From an uncultured Mycoplasmatota bacterium (GTDB lineage: Bacteria; Bacillota_I; Bacilli_A; RF39; UBA660): a DNA stretch of 64,000 nt. This document shows positions 12,020 through 54,381 of this stretch, one piece after another. The position numbers and the translations under genes are program-made. The notes beneath the pieces are model-generated. The model had not been told where the DNA came from and made no database searches. It saw nothing but the letters and a program-made list of their open reading frames with translations. The DNA lies in the NCBI GenBank assembly GCA_946402735.1, contig CAMIXH010000002.1:310080-374079 (forward strand), given 5' to 3'. Position 1 is the stretch's first letter; each line of letters starts with the position of its first letter.

Positions 12020-12050
12020 AAAAAAATAATTACTTAAATTAAGTAATTAT
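12020..12050 (-). terminator. Rho-independent terminator after 12047..13477
   Basis: The stem is ATAATTACTT / AAGTAATTAT (10 bp), followed by a T-run on the - strand. Confidence 0.7.
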
Positions 12051-13477
12051 TTAGTTTGATCCATATCACTAAATGCTATTGCATCAGGTATATCTAGTTC
12101 TGGTGTAGTAGATGGTTTTTCTTCTTTAACTGGTGTGTAATTATCATTATTAACTATAAATGTTGAAGAACTATCTTCTACTACTTCAGGTGTCTCAACT
12201 ATTGGTTCTTCTGCTTTTACCTCTTCTACTTCTGGTGTTTCAACTAAATTATCCTCTATAGGTGGTTCAATAACAATTTCTTGTTCTTCTTCCTTAGCAG
12301 CCTCATCAACAAATTTACTTGGTTCATATGATTTAACAAAATCAGGTCTTCTATTAAAATCATATGTATTTGCTTTTACTTCAATAACATCATTTTCTAC
12401 TTCTTCTACTTCAGGTTCTGTAATCTCTGGTGCTTCAAATTCTAAAGATGGAAGACTTTGCATTTCCATATTATCAGTAGCCGTTTCTACTTCTGGTACT
12501 GCTTGTTCTGCAGGTGCTGCTGGTACTGGCTGTTCTACTACTTCTGGTGTTTCTTCAACTACTGGCGTTTCAGGAGCAACAATAGTATCATTTTTAGCAT
12601 CTACTACTACAGGTTCATTACTAGGAGCAGCTACCTCAGCAACTACTTCTCTAGCAGTAGGTTCAGCAGTTTGCTCTTGTGTTTGAGCTGGTGCTTCTTC
12701 TACTTTAGTAGCTTCACCTTCAATAACTTCATTTTTATTTAATTCACCTTCTATAGAAGGATCATATTCTTTATATATTAATGTTGCTTTAGTAGCTTTT
12801 TTCTTTTTAAGAACAATAATCATTACTATAATTAGTATTATTGCTACTAGAGCACCTACTCCAACAATAATTATATGAGTCATATTTATAACATCAAATG
12901 AATAATTAATCTTTGTAGTATCTTTAGTAGATAATTTCCATGTTAAATATTTCTTATCTGAACTAACGTCATTAGCATTATTACTACCTACTTTTGATGG
13001 AACAACTAAATTGTATTTTAATTCCGTTTCTTCAGTTTCTTCTTCTGTAGTACTTACATTATATTTTTGTAATTTACTACCAGTAAAAACTATATTAGCT
13101 GTGTATGTATCTTTAAAGAAACTACTAGTTTTATTAAATAACTTAGTAAAATCAAATGTAGGTTCTAAAATATCAGCAATATCAACAGTATCTTTATTAG
13201 CATTACATAATTCATCAATATTTTTGAATGTTCTAGTAATTTTGAATCCACTATAATCACCATTATTATAAGTAGTAATTTTAAATCCTCTTGATTCTAA
13301 ATCACCAGAAGTAACTGTTGCACTAAGAGTATTTTTATATTCATCTTTAGTAAGTAATTCTACTTCAAGATTCATACTTTTATCATTATTTATTTTAGTA
13401 GTTATATTACTGTTTACACAACCACTTAAAAAAACTATTGCTACTAGTATTAATAGAAACCTTCTTATTCTCTCCAT
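12047..13477 (-). CDS. LppM/DUF3153-like lipoprotein with a TM helix and a long Pro/Glu/Val-rich cytoplasmic tail
   Basis: The lipobox is FLSGC|V, with a mid-protein TM helix followed by KKKKATK. The tail is low complexity (PETPVVEETPEVVEQPVPAAPAEQ). The start is moved to ATG 13477, 7 nt after AGAGGTG. Confidence 0.5.
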   Translation of the reverse strand: MERIRRFLLILVAIVFLSGCVNSNITTKINNDKSMNLEVELLTKDEYKNTLSATVTSGDLESRGFKITTYNNGDYSGFKITRTFKNIDELCNANKDTVDIADILEPTFDFTKLFNKTSSFFKDTYTANIVFTGSKLQKYNVSTTEEETEETELKYNLVVPSKVGSNNANDVSSDKKYLTWKLSTKDTTKINYSFDVINMTHIIIVGVGALVAIILIIVMIIVLKKKKATKATLIYKEYDPSIEGELNKNEVIEGEATKVEEAPAQTQEQTAEPTAREVVAEVAAPSNEPVVVDAKNDTIVAPETPVVEETPEVVEQPVPAAPAEQAVPEVETATDNMEMQSLPSLEFEAPEITEPEVEEVENDVIEVKANTYDFNRRPDFVKSYEPSKFVDEAAKEEEQEIVIEPPIEDNLVETPEVEEVKAEEPIVETPEVVEDSSSTFIVNNDNYTPVKEEKPSTTPELDIPDAIAFSDMDQTK

Positions 13478-13581
13478 AAACATACACCTCTATGTTAAGT
13501 TAATTATACCATAATCAAAATACAAAAAACAATTATAGATTTTTTAATATTATGCTTGTATAATTTAATTAGAGGGATAGT

Positions 13582-14263: not shown

Positions 14264-15874
14264 TTATCCTATTATTTCCATTATTTTAGGAAGTATTTGA
14301 GCTTTTCTAGATAATATACCATCTAGTTTAACACCCTCAACTACTTCTTTTTTATTAAATGCATTTCTTATAATATCTTCAGCATCACTATTATATAAAC
14401 AATAAGATTCATTATCAAATACATCAGTAGCAAATAAAGTTAATATTTTAAATCCATCTTTTTTAGCTATTGTATTTAAATATTCAACTATTTCATCAGT
14501 TCTATTTTTAATTTGTTTAAAATCCATTATTAATAATTGACCAATACCAATTAATTTATCATCTATTTTATATGTTTTAAAGTCTTTATTAAGCATTTCT
14601 TCAACAGTTAAATTAGAAACATTCATTCCCTTCTTTAACATCTTCATACCATAATCTTTATAATTAATACCTGCTATTATTGATAAACGCTCTAAAGCTA
14701 TTTTATCTTTTTCAGTAGTAGTTGGACTAGTTAATAATAATGTATCAGATATAATAGCAGAAGCAAGAAGTCCTGCTATATTAGGTGGTACTTCTACTAA
14801 GTTTTCATTATACATTTCATATATCATAGTACTAGTACTACCACAATTAGTGCTTCTAAAGTTAATTGGTCTTCTTGTTACTATATCACCAATATTATGA
14901 TGATCTAATATTTCTATTATTTCAGCTTCATCTATTCCTTCAACACTTTGAGAGAAGTTATTGTGATCAACTAACATAACTTGTTTTCTATTAACATTAT
15001 TAGTATCAGTTAAACTAAGAACACCTAAACATTCATGCTTACTATTTATAATTGGATAATTAGTATGTCTATACTGTTTACTTCTATCAAAGAAACTAGT
15101 TAAATAATCAACTTCATTAAATGTAATTGTTTCTTTTTCACTTCTAACAAAATTTCTAACATAATTAGCAAGAGTTATTAAACTACCTACATCATAAATA
15201 CCATAATTTGTTTTAATAACATTTATTTTATTTTGACGAGCTTTATTTAATAAATCATTAGTTAGTTTAGTATTATCTACTAATATAATTAGTTTTACTT
15301 TTGAATCAATTGCATATTCAATAGTATCTTTCTTATCACCAATTACTAATATAGTCTCATTATTAATTTTTGATTTATTGATAGATTCATGTGTATATAA
15401 AGTGCCACATATTTCTTTATCAAATTTAAGTATATTTTCACCTTTTAAAATATCAAGAATATTACCATAAGAACTATCTATTCTATATGAATTACCATTA
15501 ATAACTTCTGATGCTATTTCTTTAAGAGAAATATATCCATAATAATTATTCTTTCCTTCAACAACAGGTATACCAGTTAATGAATATTTATTCATATAAT
15601 CAAAAGCATATTTAATAGTTGCATTCTTACCAATAAAATTATTTTTATGATAATTAACATCTCTTATTTGTAACTTAACATCATTTAAATGATATGGAAC
15701 TTTAAATCCAAAGTAATCAAGAACAAACTTAGTTTCAGCATTAACATTTCCTAAAACGCATGGAATAGTATTAAATCCAAGTTTATTCTTCAAATAAGAT
15801 AGACCTATAGCAGCACATACTGCATCAGTATCAGGATTCTTATGTCCAAATATAAATACCCTCTTTTTATTCAT
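14264..15874 (-). CDS. ppaC: CBS-domain family II (DHH) inorganic pyrophosphatase
   Basis: DHH motifs are present (GHKNPDTDAVCAA and LDHHNIGD). A CBS/DRTGG insert lies between the DHH and DHHA2 parts. The 536-aa size is typical of CBS-PPases. Confidence 0.8.
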   Translation of the reverse strand: MNKKRVFIFGHKNPDTDAVCAAIGLSYLKNKLGFNTIPCVLGNVNAETKFVLDYFGFKVPYHLNDVKLQIRDVNYHKNNFIGKNATIKYAFDYMNKYSLTGIPVVEGKNNYYGYISLKEIASEVINGNSYRIDSSYGNILDILKGENILKFDKEICGTLYTHESINKSKINNETILVIGDKKDTIEYAIDSKVKLIILVDNTKLTNDLLNKARQNKINVIKTNYGIYDVGSLITLANYVRNFVRSEKETITFNEVDYLTSFFDRSKQYRHTNYPIINSKHECLGVLSLTDTNNVNRKQVMLVDHNNFSQSVEGIDEAEIIEILDHHNIGDIVTRRPINFRSTNCGSTSTMIYEMYNENLVEVPPNIAGLLASAIISDTLLLTSPTTTEKDKIALERLSIIAGINYKDYGMKMLKKGMNVSNLTVEEMLNKDFKTYKIDDKLIGIGQLLIMDFKQIKNRTDEIVEYLNTIAKKDGFKILTLFATDVFDNESYCLYNSDAEDIIRNAFNKKEVVEGVKLDGILSRKAQILPKIMEIIG

Positions 15875-15879
15875 CCTTT

Positions 15880-18051
15880 CTATCTCCTTTTTATTTCTGA
15901 ATCACTTTGTTCTTGTATTCTTCTTTTTATTATTCCTCTTTCATATTCATATGATGCTTTAATTACTTCATATAATTTAATTAATTCTGAGCTGAATTTT
16001 TCATCTAAATTCATATTATCATCATATGATTTAATTATTTCTGAATCAATTATATTATTTTGTTTTATATTTATACCTATTTTATTATAATTCATTGTAC
16101 TATCATTATCAACATTTGTATTATTTGTTGTTTTTTCATACATATATTCTAATGTGATAAATGCTGTTTGTCTTTCAGGGAATAATTCTTTTTGTAAAAA
16201 GAATAAATATGTTCTAGCTATATCACTTTTACCAGAATTATTTAATTCATTTATTCTACGAATCATAACTCTATAGTACATTCGATCATAATCTGGATCC
16301 ATATCCATTATATAACCTTCTAAGTTTTCCATTTCATAAGAAACAAACTGACTAAGAGTCATATTACCTTGTTTCTCTTTTTCTTTTAATTGGGCTTCAT
16401 CTAAACTTTGAGGTTTTACTTCAACAATCATTTTATTCAAATGTGGTTTTAGTTTTTTGTATAATTCCTCATCACTTAATTTTGGTTTACCTACACCTTT
16501 TTTTCCTAAATCAGTTTGAATTTCTTCTGAAGTTTTTTTTGTTTTTGGATCTTTTGATTCCTCAATTGATTCTTTAGTATCTTCTTTAAGTAAGTTTTCC
16601 TCTTGATGAATATCTGTAGTATATACTCCCCCACCATCAGTGGAAATTACATGTTTAATACCATTCTTCTTATAAAAACTAATTGGTACATCATTTAATG
16701 AATCAATATTTCCTAAAGCATAATTTGATGATACATTAATTTCTACAGTAACATCCAAATCTTTTAATAAATCTACTAATTCTGGATTTTGTAAAATATT
16801 TACTCCATGACCAACTCTAATTCTAGGAGGTGGTATTTTTCCCCAATCTTGTTTAAATAAACTTTGGCATGATTTATTCAATTCATCTTGTATTTCTTGT
16901 ATAGTTTTTAAAGATTCAAATAAATTATTTTTTGCATCTTTAAATTCTGAAGCATGCAATCTAAGTAAACTATTTGGATACATATGAAGAACAGGAATTA
17001 TACAAGTTAAACTATTCTTGAAATTTGCTAGTTCGTCGCCAGTTAATTCTTTTTCAAGACCCATTACATCAGCGCCAATAACTTTACTACTACCTAGTAA
17101 TTCTTCTAAATCTCTAGCTGCTCTTCTAAATGACTTAATATCTTTATCTCTTCTAATACTTAGTAATAAATTAAAACTATTGTCTTTTGAATGCTTCTTA
17201 CTCATATATTTAAGTCTATTAGCAGTAGAAAAACTAATTTCTGAATATTCTATTTTTTCATCCTTTAATTTTGCTAATGAAGCTACTAACAAATCATCAT
17301 ATAGAATGTCTCTAACCATACAATCTCTTTTAGTTTTATCAGGTTCTCTTTCAAATTCAGATATTCTATCTTTTAATATATACTTAGCATTTTGTTTTTC
17401 TGCTATTTCTAATAAACGACGTCTATTATTATTTACTACATTAGTTAAATCACTAAACTCTGATTGTTTACTAACATCTAATCTTAATGCATTAGTAACT
17501 TTTCTATATATATCATTATTAGCTTTTATATCACTATATGTTAACCATGTAACATTACTACTTTCAAAATCAAGTTCACCAGTACTAGTATTTATTGGAT
17601 AAGTAACATGATATTGTTCTAAAAATAATAAGAATTCATCAGGATTTAATATTTCAATTAAATGAGTATGTAATTCAGTATGATGTTGTTGTACACTATT
17701 CCATCCTCTAGGAAGAGAATCTAATTCTTTTTTAATTTTATTAAATTCACTAAAGAATGTATGTGCATCTGTATCTCCTTCATTAATTAAACGATCTATT
17801 CTATAAGCAAGAGCACATAATATTCTTATTTCAGTAGTAGTAACATTATTTTCAAGTGTTATTTGTCCTTGTGCTATTTTGATAAATCTTTTTAATCCTA
17901 AAAGGCCATAAGTAACATCTCCAACTTTATATATTTCTACTTTATCATTTAGAATTTCTAATCCTTTTTCAAACTCAAAAGAGACTCTACCATCTTGAAT
18001 GATACAATCTACATATAAGCCTTGTTTATTTAGGATTATTCTTTGTCTCAT
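15880..18051 (-). CDS. Large adenosine/AMP-deaminase-fold (amidohydrolase) protein with additional N- and C-terminal domains
   Basis: The ordered metal and catalytic motifs of the adenosine deaminase family are present: ELH127-T-H129, GADVMGLE(326-333), LH366ASE369, VGH415G, VSSN, STD472GGG. The H415-D472 spacing of 57 aa matches classical ADA. The stop lies 5 nt before the ppaC start, and the ppaC SD sits inside this gene's 3' end. Confidence 0.6.
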   Translation of the reverse strand: MRQRIILNKQGLYVDCIIQDGRVSFEFEKGLEILNDKVEIYKVGDVTYGLLGLKRFIKIAQGQITLENNVTTTEIRILCALAYRIDRLINEGDTDAHTFFSEFNKIKKELDSLPRGWNSVQQHHTELHTHLIEILNPDEFLLFLEQYHVTYPINTSTGELDFESSNVTWLTYSDIKANNDIYRKVTNALRLDVSKQSEFSDLTNVVNNNRRRLLEIAEKQNAKYILKDRISEFEREPDKTKRDCMVRDILYDDLLVASLAKLKDEKIEYSEISFSTANRLKYMSKKHSKDNSFNLLLSIRRDKDIKSFRRAARDLEELLGSSKVIGADVMGLEKELTGDELANFKNSLTCIIPVLHMYPNSLLRLHASEFKDAKNNLFESLKTIQEIQDELNKSCQSLFKQDWGKIPPPRIRVGHGVNILQNPELVDLLKDLDVTVEINVSSNYALGNIDSLNDVPISFYKKNGIKHVISTDGGGVYTTDIHQEENLLKEDTKESIEESKDPKTKKTSEEIQTDLGKKGVGKPKLSDEELYKKLKPHLNKMIVEVKPQSLDEAQLKEKEKQGNMTLSQFVSYEMENLEGYIMDMDPDYDRMYYRVMIRRINELNNSGKSDIARTYLFFLQKELFPERQTAFITLEYMYEKTTNNTNVDNDSTMNYNKIGINIKQNNIIDSEIIKSYDDNMNLDEKFSSELIKLYEVIKASYEYERGIIKRRIQEQSDSEIKRR

Positions 18052-18149: not shown

Positions 18150-18893
18150 ATGAATAATATTAATTGTGAACATTGTGGTTCTTTAATTAACACAGACAAA
18201 GATATAAAGTGTCCTAACTGTGGAGCTCCATATAAAAATAATAAACAATATAAAGAATACTTAGCTTATCAAAAAAAGCAAAGAGAATTAAATTTAGAAA
18301 CTCAACAAATAGCTAATAATATTACTAAAGATGTTCATAATGCTAGTCAAAAAGCAATACCAGCAGTATTCATTATAGTAATAGCTATATTCCTAATATC
18401 ATTCGCATTCTTCTTTATAATATTTAGACAAGCATTCTCAAGTATGGATGATTACCAAGAAAAATATAATGACTATATTAATAACAAAGAACAAATAGAA
18501 ATGTTACAAAAAGATCATGAAAAAGTATATATATTCTTTAATGAATATGCGTATACAGATCAATTCGATATTAAAGTAGATAAAGTAATTGATTATACTG
18601 AAACTAAATATGAGAAGAATAAACATTATTATGGATTTCATATAGTATTTAATAACAAAACAAGAGATTGGAAAACATTGTCTGATATAAGATGTACATA
18701 TCTTATTGAAGGCGAAGAAAGAAGCGCAGGAAAAGAAATAGTATCAGCTAAAGAATTAGATTTCTTTGCTAAAGATATTCAGACATATGATGGATATTTA
18801 TATTATGATATCCCAGAAGAAGTAAAAGATGTAACTTTAGTATTTGGTGATATCAATATAACAATATTTGATTTCAAACATAAAATAAAATAA
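18150..18893 (+). CDS. Zinc-ribbon / TM / extracellular beta-sandwich (DUF4352-like) protein
   Basis: The N-terminus has CEHCGS...CPNCGA, followed by one TM helix. The C-terminal domain pattern resembles DUF4352. Confidence 0.4.
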   Translation: MNNINCEHCGSLINTDKDIKCPNCGAPYKNNKQYKEYLAYQKKQRELNLETQQIANNITKDVHNASQKAIPAVFIIVIAIFLISFAFFFIIFRQAFSSMDDYQEKYNDYINNKEQIEMLQKDHEKVYIFFNEYAYTDQFDIKVDKVIDYTETKYEKNKHYYGFHIVFNNKTRDWKTLSDIRCTYLIEGEERSAGKEIVSAKELDFFAKDIQTYDGYLYYDIPEEVKDVTLVFGDINITIFDFKHKIK

Positions 18894-18963
18894 GGATTGT
18901 AAACATACAATCCTTTTATTGTGACAAGTACTTTATATTGATATAATTATCATAGGTGATAAT

Positions 18964-20037
18964 ATGGATAAAAAAACAAGTGAACCAGTAAATTTTAAAA
19001 AGGTTTTTATTATAATTGTAGTCATTTGGACAATCATATCTATATTAATATGTCTACCATCAACTATTAATTATTATAAAAAACATAATACTAATAATAA
19101 TGAGGAAATAAAAGAACAAGATAGAATTCAAGAAGAAAAAGAACAAGAAAGAATTCAGGAAAGTATACATAATGGAATAGATATAAAATTGAAGAAATTG
19201 GGATTTGAAGAATACAACGATTCTACTTGCCCTAACAATGATAAATGTTTGACTAATGGTCAATACAAGATTGATTATGATATAACTGGATGGTTTAATA
19301 TAAAAAGAAAAATAGATGAAAATGAAAAATTTGATTCAAAAGATGATTTATTATTAATTGGAAATTTATATAATAATGAAAAAATTTCAACAAGAAGTAG
19401 TATTATTAATAACATATTTGGTAATAGTAAAGAAAACTATATTAGTAGTTTTATTAATATGGATGGTCTCCATTTTTATATTTCACGTTCATCAACAACA
19501 ATTCATTACTCTATTATGTATTATAGAGTAGATAATGATTTGGAACTTGATATAGATTCATTAAGTTCAACTTCATTTAATGAAAAATATGATAGATTAA
19601 AAATGTATAATTTACTATTTAATGATTATAAGAATAGATTCCCTGTATATGATTTTATTAATCATTATAAACAATATTTAGATAATTACAATATTTCAGT
19701 AGATATGCATTATAATAATTACAGAGTAAAAGAAGCATATTCTAGTTATTATAGTTTCGATTTTGATAAAAGAGGATACAATGATAATCTTATTACTGTT
19801 ATTGTGCCTGGTTCTCTTTATGAAGGACAAAATGTTGGACTAATAAATAATGATTTAAAATATTTTTCTAATAAATTTGATGGAAAATATGAATTAACAA
19901 AAGAGGATAAAGAGTCAATTAAAATGGTAATGTCACAAGATTATTATAAAACTACTATCAATAAAAACAATTTAACTATAACCATAGAAAGGATAGCTGC
20001 AGGTAGAGCATTCTACATTACATATAATTTCGATTAA
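18964..20037 (+). CDS. Membrane-anchored hypothetical protein
   Basis: A long ORF preceded by SD AGGTGA, with an N-terminal TM helix. I recognised no motifs. Confidence 0.4.
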   Translation: MDKKTSEPVNFKKVFIIIVVIWTIISILICLPSTINYYKKHNTNNNEEIKEQDRIQEEKEQERIQESIHNGIDIKLKKLGFEEYNDSTCPNNDKCLTNGQYKIDYDITGWFNIKRKIDENEKFDSKDDLLLIGNLYNNEKISTRSSIINNIFGNSKENYISSFINMDGLHFYISRSSTTIHYSIMYYRVDNDLELDIDSLSSTSFNEKYDRLKMYNLLFNDYKNRFPVYDFINHYKQYLDNYNISVDMHYNNYRVKEAYSSYYSFDFDKRGYNDNLITVIVPGSLYEGQNVGLINNDLKYFSNKFDGKYELTKEDKESIKMVMSQDYYKTTINKNNLTITIERIAAGRAFYITYNFD

Positions 20038-23641: not shown

Positions 23642-26020
23642 TTATAAACTTAATAGTATTCTATAATAATCACTCTTGAATTCATCTTTTTCTATTCCTA
23701 ATTTATCATAGAAAACTTGAACATATTCTTTTCCATAATTTCTTTCAATAGACATTTCACATACCACTAAATCATAATATATATCTGATATACCAGCATT
23801 TCCAACATCTATTAAACCATTAAAGTGATGATCTAAAGCATATATATTAGGTAAAGACATGTCACCATGAGTAAATCCCATTATCTGTTTTGGTTTATTA
23901 CCTTTTAAATACTTAAGAATTGCTTCTTTACTATGAAATCTATCTAATATTTCTTTTTTAATATCACTATTTTTTATTGATGGAAATCTACTTTCAATTT
24001 CTTTAATCTTAGTATCAATTGTTTCATCAACAACACAATCACTATAATCAATATTATATAAATCATTAAATGCTTCAATTATTATATCTATACCTTCTAG
24101 AGGATGCTCTTCATAATACTTACTACAAAGCATTTCTCCTTTTATTTCACGACTTAATATATATGATTTACCATTATATTTTTCATAAAACATCTTTTCA
24201 GGAACTTTAATCTTATTTTTTAAATAATCAAGCATTATAGATTCTTTACTTAAATGATCAGCTATTTTCAAATAGAATGTTTTACTCTTCTTTCTTATTC
24301 TATATACTTTAGAATTACATCCAATTGTAACTTCTTCTACTCTATTAGCATCTTTTAAGAATTCGTTTAATCTATTACTACCTTTAATAACTATTTCTTT
24401 CTTAGTAACAGGTTCAATTATCTTTTTTCTGTTATCTAGCGATGCCAAATAATCATAATTGCCATTATAAGTGACCAAGTGTCTATTTTCAAATCTAACT
24501 ATTTTAGTAGCAATCTTATTAATAAAGTATCTATCGTGTGAAATAAATAATATAGATCCATCAAAATCAAGAAGTGCTTCTTCTAATATTTCACGAGTAT
24601 CAATATCAATATGATTAGTTGGTTCATCTAGAATTAGAAAGTTGGCTTTTTGTAAAATTAATTCAAGTAATTTAATTCTTACCTTTTCACCACCACTGAT
24701 ATTTTTAAGTTTCTTAGAAATTGATTCTTCTCCAAAATAAAATCTATTTAATTTACTTCTAAGTTCACTTTCACTTCCTACAAAACTCTTTCTCATATGT
24801 TCATAAACTGTTAATTCTTCATTTTCGAACCTTATTTCTTGTGGAATATACCCTATACTAACATTTGCACCCAATTTTATATTATCGTGTGTATTATTTA
24901 TTATATTTTTTATTAAAGTAGTCTTTCCACAACCATTTTTTCCCATTAAACAAACACGTTCTTTGAAGTATACATTCATGTTTGCACTCTCTAGTAACGA
25001 CTTAGTGTCAATTTGTAAACTCAAATCTTTAATGTCAATTACCCAGTTGGCACTTCTCTTAATTGTATCTAAATTAATCTTTAGTTCACTCTTTTCAACA
25101 GGTTTATCAATCTTCTCCATTCTCTCAAGTCTTTTTTCCATAGCCGCTGCTCTTCTAAAGAAAATTGGATTATCTGCTTTATTACCCCATTCTTTTAATC
25201 TAACAATCGCTTCTTTAATAGCTTTTATTTCTTTTTGTTGATTTTTATACTTTTGCATTTGAAGTAAAAATCTTTTATCACTTTCTTCTAAATAATATGA
25301 ATAGTTTCCAAAATATATATCTTCATGTCCATTTTCAATACATATTACTTTATTACATACTCTATCCATAAAGTATCTATCGTGACTAACCAATAAAATA
25401 GCGCCCTTATAACTATTTAAATAGTCTTCAAACCATTCTAAAGTATCAATATCTAAGTGATTAGTAGGTTCATCAAGTAAAAGAATATCAGGATTACTTA
25501 AAACTAAACTAGCCAAATTAACAATGGTCTTTTCTCCACCACTTAAATTATTATATTTAGTATTTAAAACACTTTCACTTAATTTAAAACCGTGTTTAAT
25601 CTTTTCAATTATTTCTTTTAATTGATATCCACCTTTAATTCTAAATTCTTCTTGAAGTACTGTTAGTTCTTTAATAGACTTTTCAGAAGAATCCATATTC
25701 ATAACAAAATCATTAATCCTATTATCAAGATCAATTAAGTCTTTTACTCCTCTTAAATATACTTCATTTGCTGACACATCGTCACTTTCTAATGGTGGAA
25801 TTTGAGTTAAATAACCAATAGTAGATCCTTTTCTAATATTTATTGTGCCACTATCAGGTCTTTCTAAACCCATAATTAATCTAAGTGTAGTAGTTTTACC
25901 ACACCCATTTCTTCCAATTAAGGAAACACGTTCACCAGTTTTTATATCAAAAGATAAATCATTTAAAACACTATTAAAACCATAATTTTTATTTATTTTA
26001 TTTAAACTTATTTCTATCAT
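23642..26020 (-). CDS. ABC-F ATPase (two NBDs, no TMD) fused to a C-terminal APH(3')-like aminoglycoside phosphotransferase domain
   Basis: NBD1 has GRNGCGKTT, LSGGEKT and LLLDEPTNHLD. NBD2 has GKNGCGKTT, ISGGEKV and LILDEPTNHID. From about aa 545 (about nt 24390 down to 23645) the kinase motifs are FYLKI, THGDMSLPNIY and GLIDVGNAGISDIYYDL. The tail DKLGIEKDEFKSDYYRILL parallels APH(3')-IIIa. Confidence 0.8.
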   Translation of the reverse strand: MIEISLNKINKNYGFNSVLNDLSFDIKTGERVSLIGRNGCGKTTTLRLIMGLERPDSGTINIRKGSTIGYLTQIPPLESDDVSANEVYLRGVKDLIDLDNRINDFVMNMDSSEKSIKELTVLQEEFRIKGGYQLKEIIEKIKHGFKLSESVLNTKYNNLSGGEKTIVNLASLVLSNPDILLLDEPTNHLDIDTLEWFEDYLNSYKGAILLVSHDRYFMDRVCNKVICIENGHEDIYFGNYSYYLEESDKRFLLQMQKYKNQQKEIKAIKEAIVRLKEWGNKADNPIFFRRAAAMEKRLERMEKIDKPVEKSELKINLDTIKRSANWVIDIKDLSLQIDTKSLLESANMNVYFKERVCLMGKNGCGKTTLIKNIINNTHDNIKLGANVSIGYIPQEIRFENEELTVYEHMRKSFVGSESELRSKLNRFYFGEESISKKLKNISGGEKVRIKLLELILQKANFLILDEPTNHIDIDTREILEEALLDFDGSILFISHDRYFINKIATKIVRFENRHLVTYNGNYDYLASLDNRKKIIEPVTKKEIVIKGSNRLNEFLKDANRVEEVTIGCNSKVYRIRKKSKTFYLKIADHLSKESIMLDYLKNKIKVPEKMFYEKYNGKSYILSREIKGEMLCSKYYEEHPLEGIDIIIEAFNDLYNIDYSDCVVDETIDTKIKEIESRFPSIKNSDIKKEILDRFHSKEAILKYLKGNKPKQIMGFTHGDMSLPNIYALDHHFNGLIDVGNAGISDIYYDLVVCEMSIERNYGKEYVQVFYDKLGIEKDEFKSDYYRILLSL

Positions 26021-51249: not shown

Positions 51250-52920
51250 TTATTTACAAACCTTTTCTCCGTTAACTGTTCTTGTTTTTCCTGTATAAAT
51301 CCATCCGTTTAATGTTTTAGAATTACTCCATTTATATTGATATCCAGTAGTTTCAACTCTTGTAACTTTAGCTTTCTTCTTAGAAGTTGCATATAAGTTA
51401 CATTTGTCTCCTTCTAACTTCCATCCCTTAGAACATTCTCTAACTGTATAAGTTTCAGTTACAACTTTATAACATTTTGATCCACTTAACTTATAAGATG
51501 AATCTTTACATTTATAATATGTAGAACCAGCTATTAACTTGTAGCATTTTAATGTAGATCCGCTACCTTCTTTAACATCTGTTCCACTTGGACAACTATA
51601 AGTTGTTGTAGTCTTAGTACACTTATGATCACTTGTTAATGTATATCCACTATATTTATTACAATTGTATGAAGTAGTAGTTTTAACACAATTAGATCCA
51701 CTTAATGTATATCCACTATATTTATTACAATTATATGTAGTAGTTGATTTAACACATTTGTTTCCACTTAATGTATATCCACTATATTTATTACAATTAT
51801 AAGTTGTAGTAGTTTTCTTACATTGTTGACCACTTAATGTATATCCAGGATACTTATCACAGTTATAAACTGTTTTATAACAAGTATCAGTATATACAAC
51901 GCTTACATCTTTACAAGATTGAACTTGAACTGTTTCATAACATGTATTACATGTTGTTGTTGGTTTACCATTAATAATTGTAGTCTTACAATCACAAGAA
52001 TATGGTCTCTTTTCAGTCTTAGTAGTACATTGTTGTTCTACTCTTGTTTTTTCACAAGAATATGGTTTTTGTACTGCTGTAGCTGATTTTGTATCAGTAG
52101 TAGTTACTTTAGTTGCATCTTTTGTATCTGTTGTAGTTACAGGTGTTGCAGCTTTAGTATCAGTAGTAGTTACTTTAGTTGCATCTTTTGTATCAGTCTT
52201 AGTAGTAACAACTGTTTTTAATTGTTGTAATTTAGCTTGTTCTGTAATTAATTGAGCATCTTGTGTTAGAGTTTTTTCTCTAGTCTTAGTTTTGATAGCA
52301 CTTTCACTATCTTTTAAAGTCATCTTATAACAATATTTACCTTTTAAAGTATAATTCTTGTCACAAGAATATTTTGTTTTAGTTCCACTAACTAATTTTT
52401 TGAATTGATATTGAGTAACTTTAGTATAAGAACATTTTTCTTCTTTATTACCACAGTTACAATTACATTCAACTCCGTTATTAGGACAATATACATGACA
52501 TCCTAATGTCTTTGTTGTGAAACTTGATTCTTTTCCACATACTAAGTATGTTTTTAATTCATATCCAAGATCACCTTCAAGTTTAGTAATACTTACATAT
52601 GAATTAGTTTTATCACAAGCTTTTCCATCTTTATCAACAAATGGTAATATTAAATTCATATTTTCCATTTCTTCTAAAGTAAGTTTTACACTTTCACCTG
52701 GAACGCTTGGTAATTTATCTGTAGTGAAATAATTTTCACCAGCTTCTTGCATATATTTAATATTTTCTCTGTAGACATTACTATAGAATGGAGTCATATT
52801 AACATTAGGTATTTTCTTTTGGAATAACCAAATTAATATGAATATAAATATAGCAGCAAATATAATTTTTACTAATAGATCTAATACACTAAATCCACTT
52901 TTTCTTTCATTACTATACAT
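51250..52920 (-). CDS. Cys-rich repeat protein with a prepilin-like N-terminus
   Basis: The N-terminus MYSNERKSG|FSVLDLLVKIIFAAIFIFILIWLF has G-F and Asp at +5. I counted about 33 Cys by hand. Repeats are 4 x 22 aa (TTTYNCNKYSGYTLSGxxCxK) and 4 x 11 aa (TTTDTKxATxV). Confidence 0.6.
   Translation of the reverse strand: MYSNERKSGFSVLDLLVKIIFAAIFIFILIWLFQKKIPNVNMTPFYSNVYRENIKYMQEAGENYFTTDKLPSVPGESVKLTLEEMENMNLILPFVDKDGKACDKTNSYVSITKLEGDLGYELKTYLVCGKESSFTTKTLGCHVYCPNNGVECNCNCGNKEEKCSYTKVTQYQFKKLVSGTKTKYSCDKNYTLKGKYCYKMTLKDSESAIKTKTREKTLTQDAQLITEQAKLQQLKTVVTTKTDTKDATKVTTTDTKAATPVTTTDTKDATKVTTTDTKSATAVQKPYSCEKTRVEQQCTTKTEKRPYSCDCKTTIINGKPTTTCNTCYETVQVQSCKDVSVVYTDTCYKTVYNCDKYPGYTLSGQQCKKTTTTYNCNKYSGYTLSGNKCVKSTTTYNCNKYSGYTLSGSNCVKTTTSYNCNKYSGYTLTSDHKCTKTTTTYSCPSGTDVKEGSGSTLKCYKLIAGSTYYKCKDSSYKLSGSKCYKVVTETYTVRECSKGWKLEGDKCNLYATSKKKAKVTRVETTGYQYKWSNSKTLNGWIYTGKTRTVNGEKVCK
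51600..51870 (-). repeat. Four tandem 66-nt (22-aa) coding repeats
   Basis: TTAATGTATATCC recurs at 51636, 51702, 51768 and 51834, a period of 66 nt. Confidence 0.85.
52078..52210 (-). repeat. Four tandem 33-nt (11-aa) coding repeats (TTTDTKDATKV)
   Basis: The unit GTATCAGTAGTAGTTACTTTAGTTGCATCTTTT repeats with variants. Confidence 0.8.
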
Positions 52921-52938: not shown

Positions 52939-54381
52939 TTAATTATTATTTAAATTTAATGTTTGTCTATGATCATATTTCCAAGATAATTGTTGATTTA
53001 AAGCATCATAGTATTCAGCAAGCCATGGATTTGGTTCAACATCCATACCACCTAATTTAGCACCAACATTATTCCAAGCACCTGTTTCTAATGCAACAAC
53101 TAAATCATTTACAGAAATTAATCCTTTTTCACCAGTATTATAATCTAAGCAAGCTTCAATACATACTGGAGTTTGTTCTGATAAATGCCATTCTCTAGCA
53201 GTTGTATTATAAGGTTCAATTGTTGAAATAAATGTTAAATACATTAAGTCAGTTCTAAATAGATGTGGGTTTGTATCACCATACATTCCTTGTAGATACC
53301 ATTCATTGTAGAATTTAAATCCTAAGCAAGCAATGGCATCTTGAACTTGTTCATCATCATGTTCATTTAAAGCATATATTAACTTATCATAAATTACACT
53401 ATAAGATCTAACGAAATCAGATTCTTCAGTTCCATCAGCAAATAATAAGTAAGCTGGGAAGTAAGTATAATGATTTGTATCATTTGAGTTAACATTAATA
53501 ACTACTTCACATAAAACATCAGTATATTCATTTAATGTCATTCCATCAAAGAATTCATATCCTTGTTCGTTAATTGGTAAAGTACCATTCATAATTCTGA
53601 TAGTATTTTCTAAATTTTCAACAGTAATTAATCTCTTTTGTTGAGCAGTTAATGTTGGATTATTAGCAAAATAATTATCAAAAATATATTGAGCTCTTGC
53701 GTGTACTTGTTCAGGATCATTGATATCAAAGAATGTACCATATTCTCCTGCTACTAATTGTACAACTTCTTCCTCTTGAGTTTCTGTTGGAGTTTCAGTT
53801 TCTGTTGGAGTTTCAGTTTCTGTTGGTTTTTCTGTTTCTGTTGGAGTTTCAGTTTCTGTTGGTTTTTCTGTTTCTGTTGGTTTTTCTGTTTCTGTTGGTT
53901 GTTCATCTTCAGCTCTAGTAATAACTCTTACTGGAGTTTCAGTTTCTTCAACTGTTTCAGTTTCAGGTTTTTCACTTCTTACTTTCTTAGCTTCTAATCC
54001 AGTATGGATAGCAATTCCAGTAAGTAATGTAGCACCAACTAATCCTAAAGCAACAGCTCCAGCTCCAACTCCTTTCTCGTCATCTACAGAAGTTTCTTCT
54101 GCATGTGTTTCAACCCTTTCAGGTTCTTCAAGACCAGGAACAACTAATTCATATTTGTCATTTAAATAACTATGAAGTTCTACAGCTTGTGTATGATATT
54201 CTTCAACATTATCTACATTAACACCATTATGAATTCTTTTAACTTTCCAAATGTCACTATTAACTTCATTTAGAATTCTGTTAGTTGCGCCATTTTCTTT
54301 TAGTGTTGTACGATAAGCTACTAATGACTTATACATACTTTCACACATACTTTGTGTTTCTTTCACTAATTCATTTTTCAT
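52939..54381 (-). CDS. Type II membrane protein with a PTETE(K/T) repeat linker and a C-terminal extracytoplasmic domain
   Basis: The TM helix is GAGAVALGLVGATLLTGIAIHTGL, followed by 7 PTETE repeats. SD AAAGGGGG is present. Confidence 0.5.
   Translation of the reverse strand: MKNELVKETQSMCESMYKSLVAYRTTLKENGATNRILNEVNSDIWKVKRIHNGVNVDNVEEYHTQAVELHSYLNDKYELVVPGLEEPERVETHAEETSVDDEKGVGAGAVALGLVGATLLTGIAIHTGLEAKKVRSEKPETETVEETETPVRVITRAEDEQPTETEKPTETEKPTETETPTETEKPTETETPTETETPTETQEEEVVQLVAGEYGTFFDINDPEQVHARAQYIFDNYFANNPTLTAQQKRLITVENLENTIRIMNGTLPINEQGYEFFDGMTLNEYTDVLCEVVINVNSNDTNHYTYFPAYLLFADGTEESDFVRSYSVIYDKLIYALNEHDDEQVQDAIACLGFKFYNEWYLQGMYGDTNPHLFRTDLMYLTFISTIEPYNTTAREWHLSEQTPVCIEACLDYNTGEKGLISVNDLVVALETGAWNNVGAKLGGMDVEPNPWLAEYYDALNQQLSWKYDHRQTLNLNNN
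53781..53898 (-). repeat. About 6.5 tandem 18-nt repeats encoding PTETE(K/T)
   Basis: TTTCTGTTGG recurs every 18 nt from 53781 to 53889. Confidence 0.9.

Follow-up and report, generated by a model that had tools for sequence, protein, structure and literature searches.

An unannotated adenosine deaminase-like clade with putative small partner proteins in uncultured gut and rumen Bacilli

We analysed a 64-kb stretch of contig CAMIXH010000002.1, from an uncultured Mycoplasmatota bacterium, and we refer to this whole stretch as the window. Its G+C content is 20-31%. Our subject is a gene on the minus strand that encodes a 723-amino-acid (aa) protein with the fold of adenosine deaminase (ADA), which we call the window deaminase; the residue numbers of motifs refer to this protein. 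The genes that flank it encode a CBS-domain family II inorganic pyrophosphatase (PPase), Gmk, a zinc-ribbon/transmembrane protein, a transmembrane protein of no assigned family, DUF1846, and GH25 (Table 1). The window deaminase would be a single-chain fusion of modules that are encoded apart in its relatives: an N-terminal accessory domain (the N-domain), a catalytic barrel, and one helical module, which we call an s-domain.

Table 1. Features of the deaminase locus in the window, and the relocated cassettes on other contigs.
Feature	Position	Strand	Basis
ADA-fold deaminase gene, 723 aa, stop included	15880..18051	-	Open reading frame (ORF); Pfam A_deaminase; invariant catalytic set; AlphaFold2 (AF2) model; Foldseek
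N-terminal accessory domain, aa 1-122: seven beta-strands and two helices	17686..18051	-	Structure models
Catalytic (beta/alpha)8 core, aa 123-490	16582..17685	-	Alignment, motif positions, model, Foldseek
Core residues: H128, H130, G326xDxxGxE333, H366, E369, H415, S442-N443, D472-G473-G474-G475	within 16582..17685	-	
Lys/Glu-rich, partly disordered linker, aa 491-539	16435..16581	-	Predicted local distance difference test (pLDDT) <50 at aa 493-504; poor conservation in 36-sequence alignment
s-domain, aa ~540-640: helical module homologous to separately encoded s1	16132..16434	-	hhalign, hidden Markov model (HMM)
C-terminal tail, aa 641-723: disordered 646-676, long helix 682-722, basic end ...EIKRR	15880..16131	-	Model
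Promoter-like TGGACT-17-TACAAT	18101-18073	-	Consensus match only
AGGAG Shine-Dalgarno sequence, 9 nt before deaminase ATG at 18051	18065-18061	-	Consensus match only
Deaminase/PPase junction: stop TAG 15882-15880, 5-nt spacer, PPase ATG at 15874	15875..15889	-	
AAGGAG in last deaminase codons, 9 nt from PPase ATG	15889-15884	-	
CBS-domain family II inorganic pyrophosphatase, 536 aa (DHH, CBS, DRTGG, DHHA2)	14264..15874	-	Pfam, NCBIfam
Terminator-like hairpin closing the two-gene transcript, shared with convergent gmk	14261-14237	-	Sole such hairpin, 3' of PPase
Relocated minimal cassettes	L030:5965-8094; L031:1802-3916; L032:5983-8118		

An earlier note, made from the sequence alone, had proposed that the 723-aa ORF carries every metal and catalytic motif of the ADA family. 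We located all of them (H128xH130, H366, E369, H415, and D472). The motifs start at 128 (HTH, 128-130), 326 (GADVMGLE), 365 (LHASE), 413 (VGHG), 440 (VSSN), and 470 (STDGGG); the earlier note had the motifs right, but it placed the HxH at 127/129 instead of 128/130, which is off by one. The spacing of 57 aa between H415 and D472 is as the note gave it. The segment from H366 to H415 is 49 aa long, and its counterpart in mouse ADA, from H214 to H238, is 24 aa, so this segment is 25 aa longer than in ADA, again as claimed. In an alignment of 36 sequences, with identities to the window deaminase of 29-54%, the invariant positions include E126, L127, H128, T129, H130, G326, G331, E333, H366, E369, and H415, as well as S442, N443, D472, G473, and G475. 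Because these motifs are invariant across relatives that are this divergent, they appear to be under selection rather than to have arisen by chance. In a second alignment, of 57 remote homologues, the catalytic equivalents are invariant or at least 90% conserved.

Models of known families and of known structures give a consistent picture. The Pfam A_deaminase model (PF00962) matches the window deaminase above its gathering score (E=7.6e-12, 45.4 bits versus a cut-off of 27), over aa 412-491 only (~80 aa), and all but one of the 48 homologue clusters that we describe below have a precomputed match to PF00962. An AF2 model built on the alignment has a pLDDT of 83.7 and a predicted template modelling score (pTM) of 0.81, and it shows an ADA/AMP deaminase (AMPD)-type (beta/alpha)8 barrel. 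When we compared the model to the Protein Data Bank (PDB) with Foldseek, the matches listed were all ADA-family barrels. The top match was the AMP deaminase of Helix pomatia (HPAMPD; E 8.5e-9), followed by human ADAL, ADA2, Plasmodium ADA, AMPD2, and MAPDA, with Cad1 lower in the list. Entries 9nte, 8qch, 3lgd, 6ii7, 8hu6, and 7rtg have E-values between 8.5e-9 and 1e-5 and a probability of 1.00. With the members of the ADA/AMPD superfamily (ADA, ADA2/ADGF, HPAMPD, ADAL/MAPDA, and AMPD2), which are its best Foldseek and HMM matches, the window deaminase shares the (beta/alpha)8 fold, the HxH/H/D ligands, the catalytic Glu and His, the GxDxxGxE and SxN motifs, and the 57-aa spacing from His to Asp. 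Judging from the predicted fold and the catalytic residues, it is a real member of this superfamily. And since a complete and invariant catalytic site is held in an ADA barrel, it is very probably an active, metal-dependent hydrolytic deaminase.

Unlike the rest of the superfamily, the window deaminase has a helical insert in the barrel at about aa 195-265, the longer segment between H366 and H415, a beta-rich N-terminal domain with no fold match, the C-terminal s-domain, and Gly-Gly-Gly in place of the second Asp of the (S/N)TDD strand. This second Asp is D296 in mouse ADA, where it contacts N7 of the purine. Its replacement by Gly had been pointed out in the earlier note. In an alignment to Plasmodium ADA, 'NSDDPGMF' of that enzyme lies against 'STDGGGVY' of the window deaminase, and because the second D of the Plasmodium enzyme falls opposite G473, we consider the change to be real. 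G473 is invariant in the 36 relatives, and the position is Gly across the wider clade.

A Gly at the position of D296 throughout the clade could mean that the barrel no longer acts on adenine. It might have been retargeted to another substrate (a guanine- or cytosine-type base, a pterin, or a modified purine) or to some other hydrolysis, or it might serve as a scaffold that binds a ligand. Remote relatives also have weak matches to models of guanine deaminase, chlorohydrolase, and SsnA, and there are likewise weak matches to Tm0936 and 2i9u. But the best matches by sequence and by structure are consistently to ADA and AMPD and not to the cog0402 deaminases, and the ADA-typical GxDxxGxE, HxxE, and GHG motifs are all retained. 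Also, every catalytic residue is invariant, which is not what we would expect of a pseudoenzyme. We think it very unlikely that this family has left adenine behind.

The earlier note described the protein as an orphan, and this was mistaken. A word-indexed search gave 48 homologue clusters, with proteins of ~480-570, ~710-730, or ~890-1070 aa, and the sole source name that is displayed for them is "hypothetical protein." An exhaustive profile search of 1.84 billion representatives gave 1373 proteins at E<=1e-3, of which 129 were at E<=1e-30. Most of the 188 proteins that we inspected share a '[ST]TDG.G' strand, so the change of the second Asp to Gly is the mark of a large clade and not just of one protein. 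This wider clade has at least 129 representatives, and no informative name is attached to any of them. The window deaminase has this strand along with the full catalytic set, and on the evidence of these alignments it is a member of this clade, which has no annotation and always carries Gly ('[ST]TDG.G') where the 'TDD' strand of ADA has its second Asp. Among species-representative genomes, the close family is found only in uncultured, low-GC Bacilli from gut and rumen, with labels such as Tenericutes, Mycoplasmatota, Erysipelotrichaceae, Acholeplasmatales, Clostridium sp. CAG:1000, and Candidatus Coprovivens. We found no relatives of the deaminase on 2.9 million viral contigs and no match for its family in PHROGs, and on these grounds we rejected a phage origin.

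Outside of the lineage with the neighbouring PPase, the deaminase gene has different and much smaller companions. Downstream of every form of ~500 aa is a gene that we call s1 (140-190 aa) and then another, s2 (114-127 aa), with the genes abutting or overlapping. The minimal form (L023-L034) is a deaminase of 366-446 aa that begins at 'TELHTHL' and has no N-domain, and it is followed by an s1 of 147-320 aa and an s2 of 127-130 aa. Downstream of the 977-aa form there is s2 alone. Overall, core, s1, and s2 are encoded by abutting or overlapping genes in 17 of the 18 loci that lack the PPase, from six or more lineages, and the exception is a fully fused form of 887 aa. The s2 proteins are homologous across loci (most pairwise BLAST comparisons give E 1e-6 to 1e-12). 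Their family comprises 135 clusters from the same organisms, all of them made up of separately encoded proteins, 123-140 aa long, without any Pfam domain. One of these clusters alone occurs on 559 contigs, which makes the cassette a common one in gut metagenomes.

Profile-profile comparison with hhalign indicates that s1 is paralogous to s2 (91.6%, E 8e-7), and it also ties s1 to the C-terminal part of the long forms (85.7%, E 5.5e-6, at about aa 552-633 of the window deaminase). Against a tighter alignment of the s-domain, the match to s1 rose to 90.5% (E 1.3e-6), versus 0.1-0.5% for controls with reversed sequences or unrelated helices, and an HMM of the s-domain matches standalone s1 proteins directly (E 3.5e-7 to 1e-3). 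Forms of 720 aa have one copy of the s-domain. The relatives of 886-900 aa have two in tandem, at 624-722 and 759-851 in P0022 and at 638-734 and 774-866 in P0029. The result is a fusion series: core, s1, and s2 as three genes; N-domain-core, s1, and s2 as three genes; N-domain-core-s as one gene, as in the window; and N-domain-core-s-s. Given this series, the C-terminus that the earlier note found to be without motifs is, by homology, a fused s1-like partner subunit at aa ~540-640. No Pfam family reaches its cut-off across the ~230 aa of this region, where only weak matches below threshold occur. The note missed both the s1-like domain and the conserved partners s1 and s2.

The window deaminase has one fused s-domain. 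We also considered whether its C-terminus might be a fusion of both s1 and s2, and we rejected this, since there is a single s1-like domain and hhalign gives only 0.4-1.5% for s2 against the C-terminus. Profile comparison found no relation of the tail at aa 641-723 to s2 either, and there is no s2 gene, standalone s1, or second s-domain anywhere in the 64-kb window. Neither s1 nor s2 has a meaningful match in Pfam, PHROGs, or PADLOC, and the same is true of the s2 profile against the PDB. Matches of single s1 or s2 members to AbiEii and Csm2 (E ~1e-3) we treated as noise.

A fusion series with three, two, and one gene is evidence as to which parts work together, and by this argument the deaminase probably works together with the s-domain proteins. 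The arrangement that looks ancestral would be a barrel followed by the tightly coupled paralogues s1 and s2, of which other lineages would have fused one copy or two. By Rosetta-stone reasoning from the gene fusions, the s-domains would bind to the barrel as regulatory or assembly subunits.

A separate observation is that a short basic tail ends all forms of the deaminase and all of the s1 proteins (...EIKRR, ...SGR, ...RKKRGK, or ...RGRRR), and it is not found on s2. In the window it is encoded at 15883-15897, and it is present in the s1 ORFs of L006, L010, L011, and L020-L034.

The N-domain is present in the long and the short forms and missing from the minimal forms. It is modelled confidently (pLDDT 86). 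The earlier note recognised no motifs in these N-terminal ~120 aa, and we did not find any either: for aa 1-122, there is no match to Pfam at the curated cut-off (only weak matches below threshold) and no fold match in the PDB (the best E is 0.56). A homology search with the N-domain only gave two fragments and missed even known members of the family, which makes it uninformative. More broadly, neither the profile libraries nor a literature search yielded a description of s1, s2, the N-domain, or the deaminase family.

In the window, the obvious partner is the PPase. As the earlier note emphasised, the two genes are tightly coupled: the gap between them is 5 nt, the Shine-Dalgarno sequence of the second gene lies inside the 3' end of the first, and a single terminator follows the PPase. 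From this layout, the deaminase and the CBS-PPase are co-transcribed in the window genome. The note's statement that the arrangement was undescribed also held up, in that our literature search gave no relevant account of an ADA with a CBS-PPase. One could imagine a module that senses or depletes adenylates, in which the deaminase alters the AMP and ATP that are ligands of the CBS domains, or in which the PPase pulls a step that releases pyrophosphate (PPi) after inosine triphosphate (ITP) has formed. The adjacency of the two genes is kept down to 33-38% identity of the deaminase (L001, L003, L008, L013-L018, L038, and L040), sometimes with a DUF362 gene between them, and a remote relative of the deaminase is coupled to a Ham1-type ITPase, whose reaction releases PPi.

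Nevertheless, we doubt that the adjacency is functional. The loci that have it are syntenic throughout, with DUF1846, gmk (on the other strand), and AddB, and because the entire neighbourhood is syntenic in that clade, the adjacency alone is uninformative. (Across these loci, identity is 34-51% for the deaminase, 77-93% for DUF1846, 70-92% for Gmk, 56-72% for the PPase, and 50-68% for AddB.) In one subgroup of that clade the DUF362 gene splits the pair. None of the other branches of the family, that is, the 887-aa, ~500-aa, 977-aa (~1000-aa), and minimal forms, has a neighbouring PPase, and there is no fusion or co-occurrence of the two outside of the clade.

The view from the PPase is similar. 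The PPase of the window is an ordinary member of its family (NCBIfam NF011443, 495.7 bits versus a cut-off of 335), and its orthologues occur with or without an upstream deaminase. Among 27 metagenomic loci with a close relative of this PPase, just 4 have the deaminase. At least 17 loci without it (L043, L045, L046, L048-L059, L061, and L062) share the order MurD-like(-), CmpB(-), HD(-), a gap of 80-150 bp, DUF362(+), PPase(+), (GH25), and gmk(-); their deaminase-bearing counterparts are L008, L017, and L018. L008 has the same order plus a 726-aa deaminase in the gap, which is a clean polymorphism of presence and absence. The PPases of the deaminase-less loci are 70-74% identical to that of L008, while the PPases of L008 and the window are 56% identical. 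Since at least 17 loci with the same gene order and with closer PPases lack the deaminase, its loss (or gain) seems to have happened at one fixed slot, with the PPase staying in place. So the earlier note's idea of a conserved deaminase-ppaC module does not survive, and we rejected a functional module as a conserved feature of the family: judging from these comparisons, the adjacency is inherited synteny of the lineage and the deaminase is dispensable. We consider the note's adenylate module of deaminase and PPase to be quite improbable. The lesson is that tight operon coupling to a CBS-PPase, which seemed to be the main novelty of this locus, is explained by inherited synteny.

The deaminase not only disappears but also moves. 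In one subclade, the deaminases of L030, L031, and L032 are 79-87% identical and yet no flanking ORF within +-6 kb is common to these loci. The flanks of these relocated minimal cassettes are ordinary (PPDK, GNAT, Fic-HTH, flavodoxin, APH, Fur, and peroxiredoxin), with no integrase and no mobile-element or defence-island setting. On comparative evidence, then, the deaminase gene is accessory and fast-evolving. Because it is lost, evolves quickly, and relocates, a stress or conflict effector or a niche function would fit it better than core salvage would.

Salvage is still the main rival to the reading that we prefer. The window deaminase could be a lineage-specific deaminase of adenosine, adenine, 5'-methylthioadenosine (MTA), or 5'-deoxyadenosine that feeds hypoxanthine or inosine into the synthesis of inosine and guanosine monophosphates (IMP and GMP), with s1, s2, and the N-domain having stabilising or allosteric roles. 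The complete ADA catalytic set and fold are what one would expect of such an enzyme. The chromosomal setting in the window is that of housekeeping genes, in a long-lived and vertically inherited slot, and the other cassettes are likewise flanked by ordinary metabolic genes. There is no signal from defence libraries, phage, or mobile genetic elements, and the 64-kb window has no second gene of the ADA family. The 'TDG' strand weakly echoes the cog0402 deaminases, and some of these act on adenosine, MTA, or S-adenosylhomocysteine without the second Asp. On the other hand, the window deaminase is far below the cut-off of every NCBIfam adenosine deaminase equivalog (~47 bits versus 216-530, in the same C-terminal stretch of the core that matches PF00962). 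We compared it to TIGR01430 and PRK09358, and the best match, to TIGR01430, reaches 47.2 bits versus 216.55 and covers aa 412-494 only, so it does not reach the level of a canonical Add. Furthermore, the deaminase diverges faster than AddB and far faster than the neighbouring enzymes, it has been lost from sister lineages whose locus is otherwise the same, and nearly identical cassettes are found at unrelated sites. Obligate small partners and shuffled fusions would also be unusual for a salvage enzyme. Overall, we think that salvage is unlikely, but it deserves to be taken seriously.

Bacterial immunity has in recent years been found to include a distinct type that works through ADA-fold enzymes acting on the nucleotide pool (in RADAR, Cad1, and Kongming). 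RdrB of RADAR is a protein of ~90 kDa that forms a dodecameric shell by means of three insertions and converts ATP and dATP to ITP and dITP, and it needs the adjacent AAA+ protein RdrA (PMC9994260). Cad1 is a ligand-gated, oligomeric ATP-to-ITP deaminase with a CARF domain that is associated with type III CRISPR (PMC11645235). KomA of Kongming is a dAMP deaminase, a compact ADA with H15 and H17, and it acts with the HAM1-like KomB and the SIR2 protein KomC (bioRxiv 10.1101/2024.12.20.629578).

Is the window deaminase a bona fide RdrB, Cad1, or KomA whose partners were lost or relocated? Its oversized ADA fold, its N-terminal extension, and the insertions that divide its core loosely recall RdrB (PMC9994260), and both could be effectors that act on the nucleotide pool. 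But unlike RdrB, the window deaminase has accessory modules of its own (the N-domain and s-domains), it is not in a defence island, and it lacks RdrA: Pfam annotation of the ten flanking ORFs includes no RdrA-like AAA+ protein, and no CARF, HAM1, or SIR2 protein either. The sole P-loop ATPase nearby is an ABC-F/APH fusion. Nor is RdrB among the matches of the deaminase profile to the PDB at E<=10 or among the 50 Foldseek matches listed.

PADLOC 2.0, which presumably includes models for RdrB, gave a single and weak match, to CARF_ADA (the model for Cad1; E 6.5e-5). It aligns aa 412-484 of the protein, which is the ADA strand region, to positions 473-552 of the profile, which is the ADA part. 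Like Cad1, the window deaminase combines an ADA domain with an N-terminal accessory domain, and by analogy the ligand-gated, oligomeric mechanism of Cad1 is the kind that we would propose for it. Unlike Cad1, it lacks a CARF domain: the N-domain, being rich in beta-strands and without a fold match in the PDB, does not seem to be a Rossmann-like CARF. The similarity to Cad1 is limited to the ADA core, and Cad1 ranks about 25th in the Foldseek list. The 64-kb window contains no CRISPR-like array, and the annotated neighbourhood contains no cas genes.

As for KomA, it is also an ADA-family enzyme in a three-gene operon, and, as mentioned, one remote 'TDG' relative of the window deaminase is coupled to a Ham1-like gene. 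But KomA is compact, the partners in our cassettes are small helical paralogues without a known domain, and the operon in the window contains just the deaminase and the PPase. Given the missing partners, the absence of CARF and of a CRISPR array, and the profile of matches, we rejected membership in any of the three systems, including the RdrB-like membership that the earlier note had raised, and we give the idea of lost or relocated partners almost no credence.

The reading that we favour, tentatively and at somewhat below even confidence, is that the window deaminase is a gated adenine-nucleotide deaminase that modifies the purine-nucleotide pool, with the s-domain and the N-domain as built-in regulators. 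Its substrate would be an adenine nucleotide (of the AMP, ATP, or dATP class), which it would convert to the inosine nucleotide. The N-domain would be a further regulatory add-on besides the s-domains. The best fold matches lean towards nucleotides: these are the AMP deaminase HPAMPD and the N6-methyl-AMP deaminase ADAL. The sole echo of the deaminase family in a defence library is the model for the ATP deaminase Cad1. Among the remote 'TDG' members, those of ~800 aa have the barrel and then a domain with recurrent matches to LSDAT/SLOG below the Pfam thresholds, and 5 of the 57 have a fused NUDIX domain.

Two remote loci add to this circumstantial lean. At L035:2686-5780, the stop codon of a Ham1p_like (ITPase-type) gene overlaps the start of a gene for an 835-aa deaminase with 'GTDGHG' (P0137), downstream of ftsA-ftsZ; this locus possibly pairs an enzyme that forms ITP with one that hydrolyses it. 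At L064:3044-7816, the remote protein P0159 is a fusion of ADA, SLOG-like, and NUDIX domains, and it is followed by a 681-aa protein with TPR-S and a class III nucleotide cyclase. The second locus looks like a nucleotide-signalling system. We found no relevant literature on ADA with SLOG.

Several points weigh against a gated nucleotide deaminase. First, the Foldseek E-values of ADA, ADA2, and Plasmodium ADA are close to those of the nucleotide deaminases. Second, the associations with NUDIX, SLOG, and Ham1 come from remote relatives only, the SLOG matches are below threshold, and the cases of suggestive context are single ones. Third, the locus in the window lies amid housekeeping genes and has kept the same slot over a deep divergence, unlike a typical defence island. 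Fourth, there are no matches to PADLOC defence systems, PHROGs, or viral contigs for the deaminase family, and none in PADLOC or PHROGs for s1 and s2. Fifth, the case that the s-domains regulate the barrel comes from gene fusion alone. Finally, because the form in the window has no s2, a gate of two subunits could not apply there unchanged.

A bolder version, which we consider doubtful, is that in Mollicutes-like gut Bacilli the core+s1+s2 cassette and the fused forms, such as the window deaminase, are a self-contained system for conflict or stress based on a nucleotide deaminase. An ATP, dATP, or AMP deaminase would be kept inactive by the helical s-proteins and the N-domain, and an event such as infection by phage or an imbalance of nucleotides would release it. 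If this is true, then the cassette achieves an outcome like that of RADAR or Cad1 via entirely different and undescribed regulatory parts.

In any case, the locus reveals an unannotated branch of the ADA fold that has its own signature (the change of the second Asp to Gly), its own partners (s1 and s2), and its own N-domain. What appears to be new here, as judged by sequence comparison, is the three-gene cassette and the fusion series on a known ADA fold; the coupling to the PPase, being a matter of synteny, is not. The hosts are uncultured Bacilli of the gut and rumen with reduced genomes, and their nucleotide metabolism and their defences against phage are poorly known. If the family consists of gated nucleotide deaminases, then it offers a new regulatory logic for this class of enzymes, and if it consists of salvage enzymes, then it supplies a missing piece of how these hosts metabolise purines.

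We also made some observations about other genes in the window. Divergent from the deaminase, at 18150-20037 (+), are two genes for membrane proteins of no assigned family. The first of these proteins has an N-terminal zinc ribbon and weak matches to PHROGs without an assigned function, and the second has a coding tandem repeat of 27 bp (19110-19161). At 12047-13483 (-) is a gene for a 478-aa membrane-anchored protein whose C-terminal half is an extremely acidic low-complexity sequence rich in Pro, Glu, and Val; it has no Pfam match, and its counterpart in L001 has only a weak match to LppM. The gene at 23642-26020 (-) encodes the fusion mentioned above, in which an ABC-F-type protein (two ABC_tran domains and ABC_tran_Xtn) is joined to a C-terminal APH-like phosphotransferase (aa 564-772), and this fusion is kept in L001. 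Finally, coding tandem repeats at 51636-51867, 52087-52197, and 53779-53905 (with units of 66, 33, and 18/36/54 bp) lie in two large ORFs, 51250..52920 (-) and 52939..54381 (-), which may encode repetitive surface proteins.

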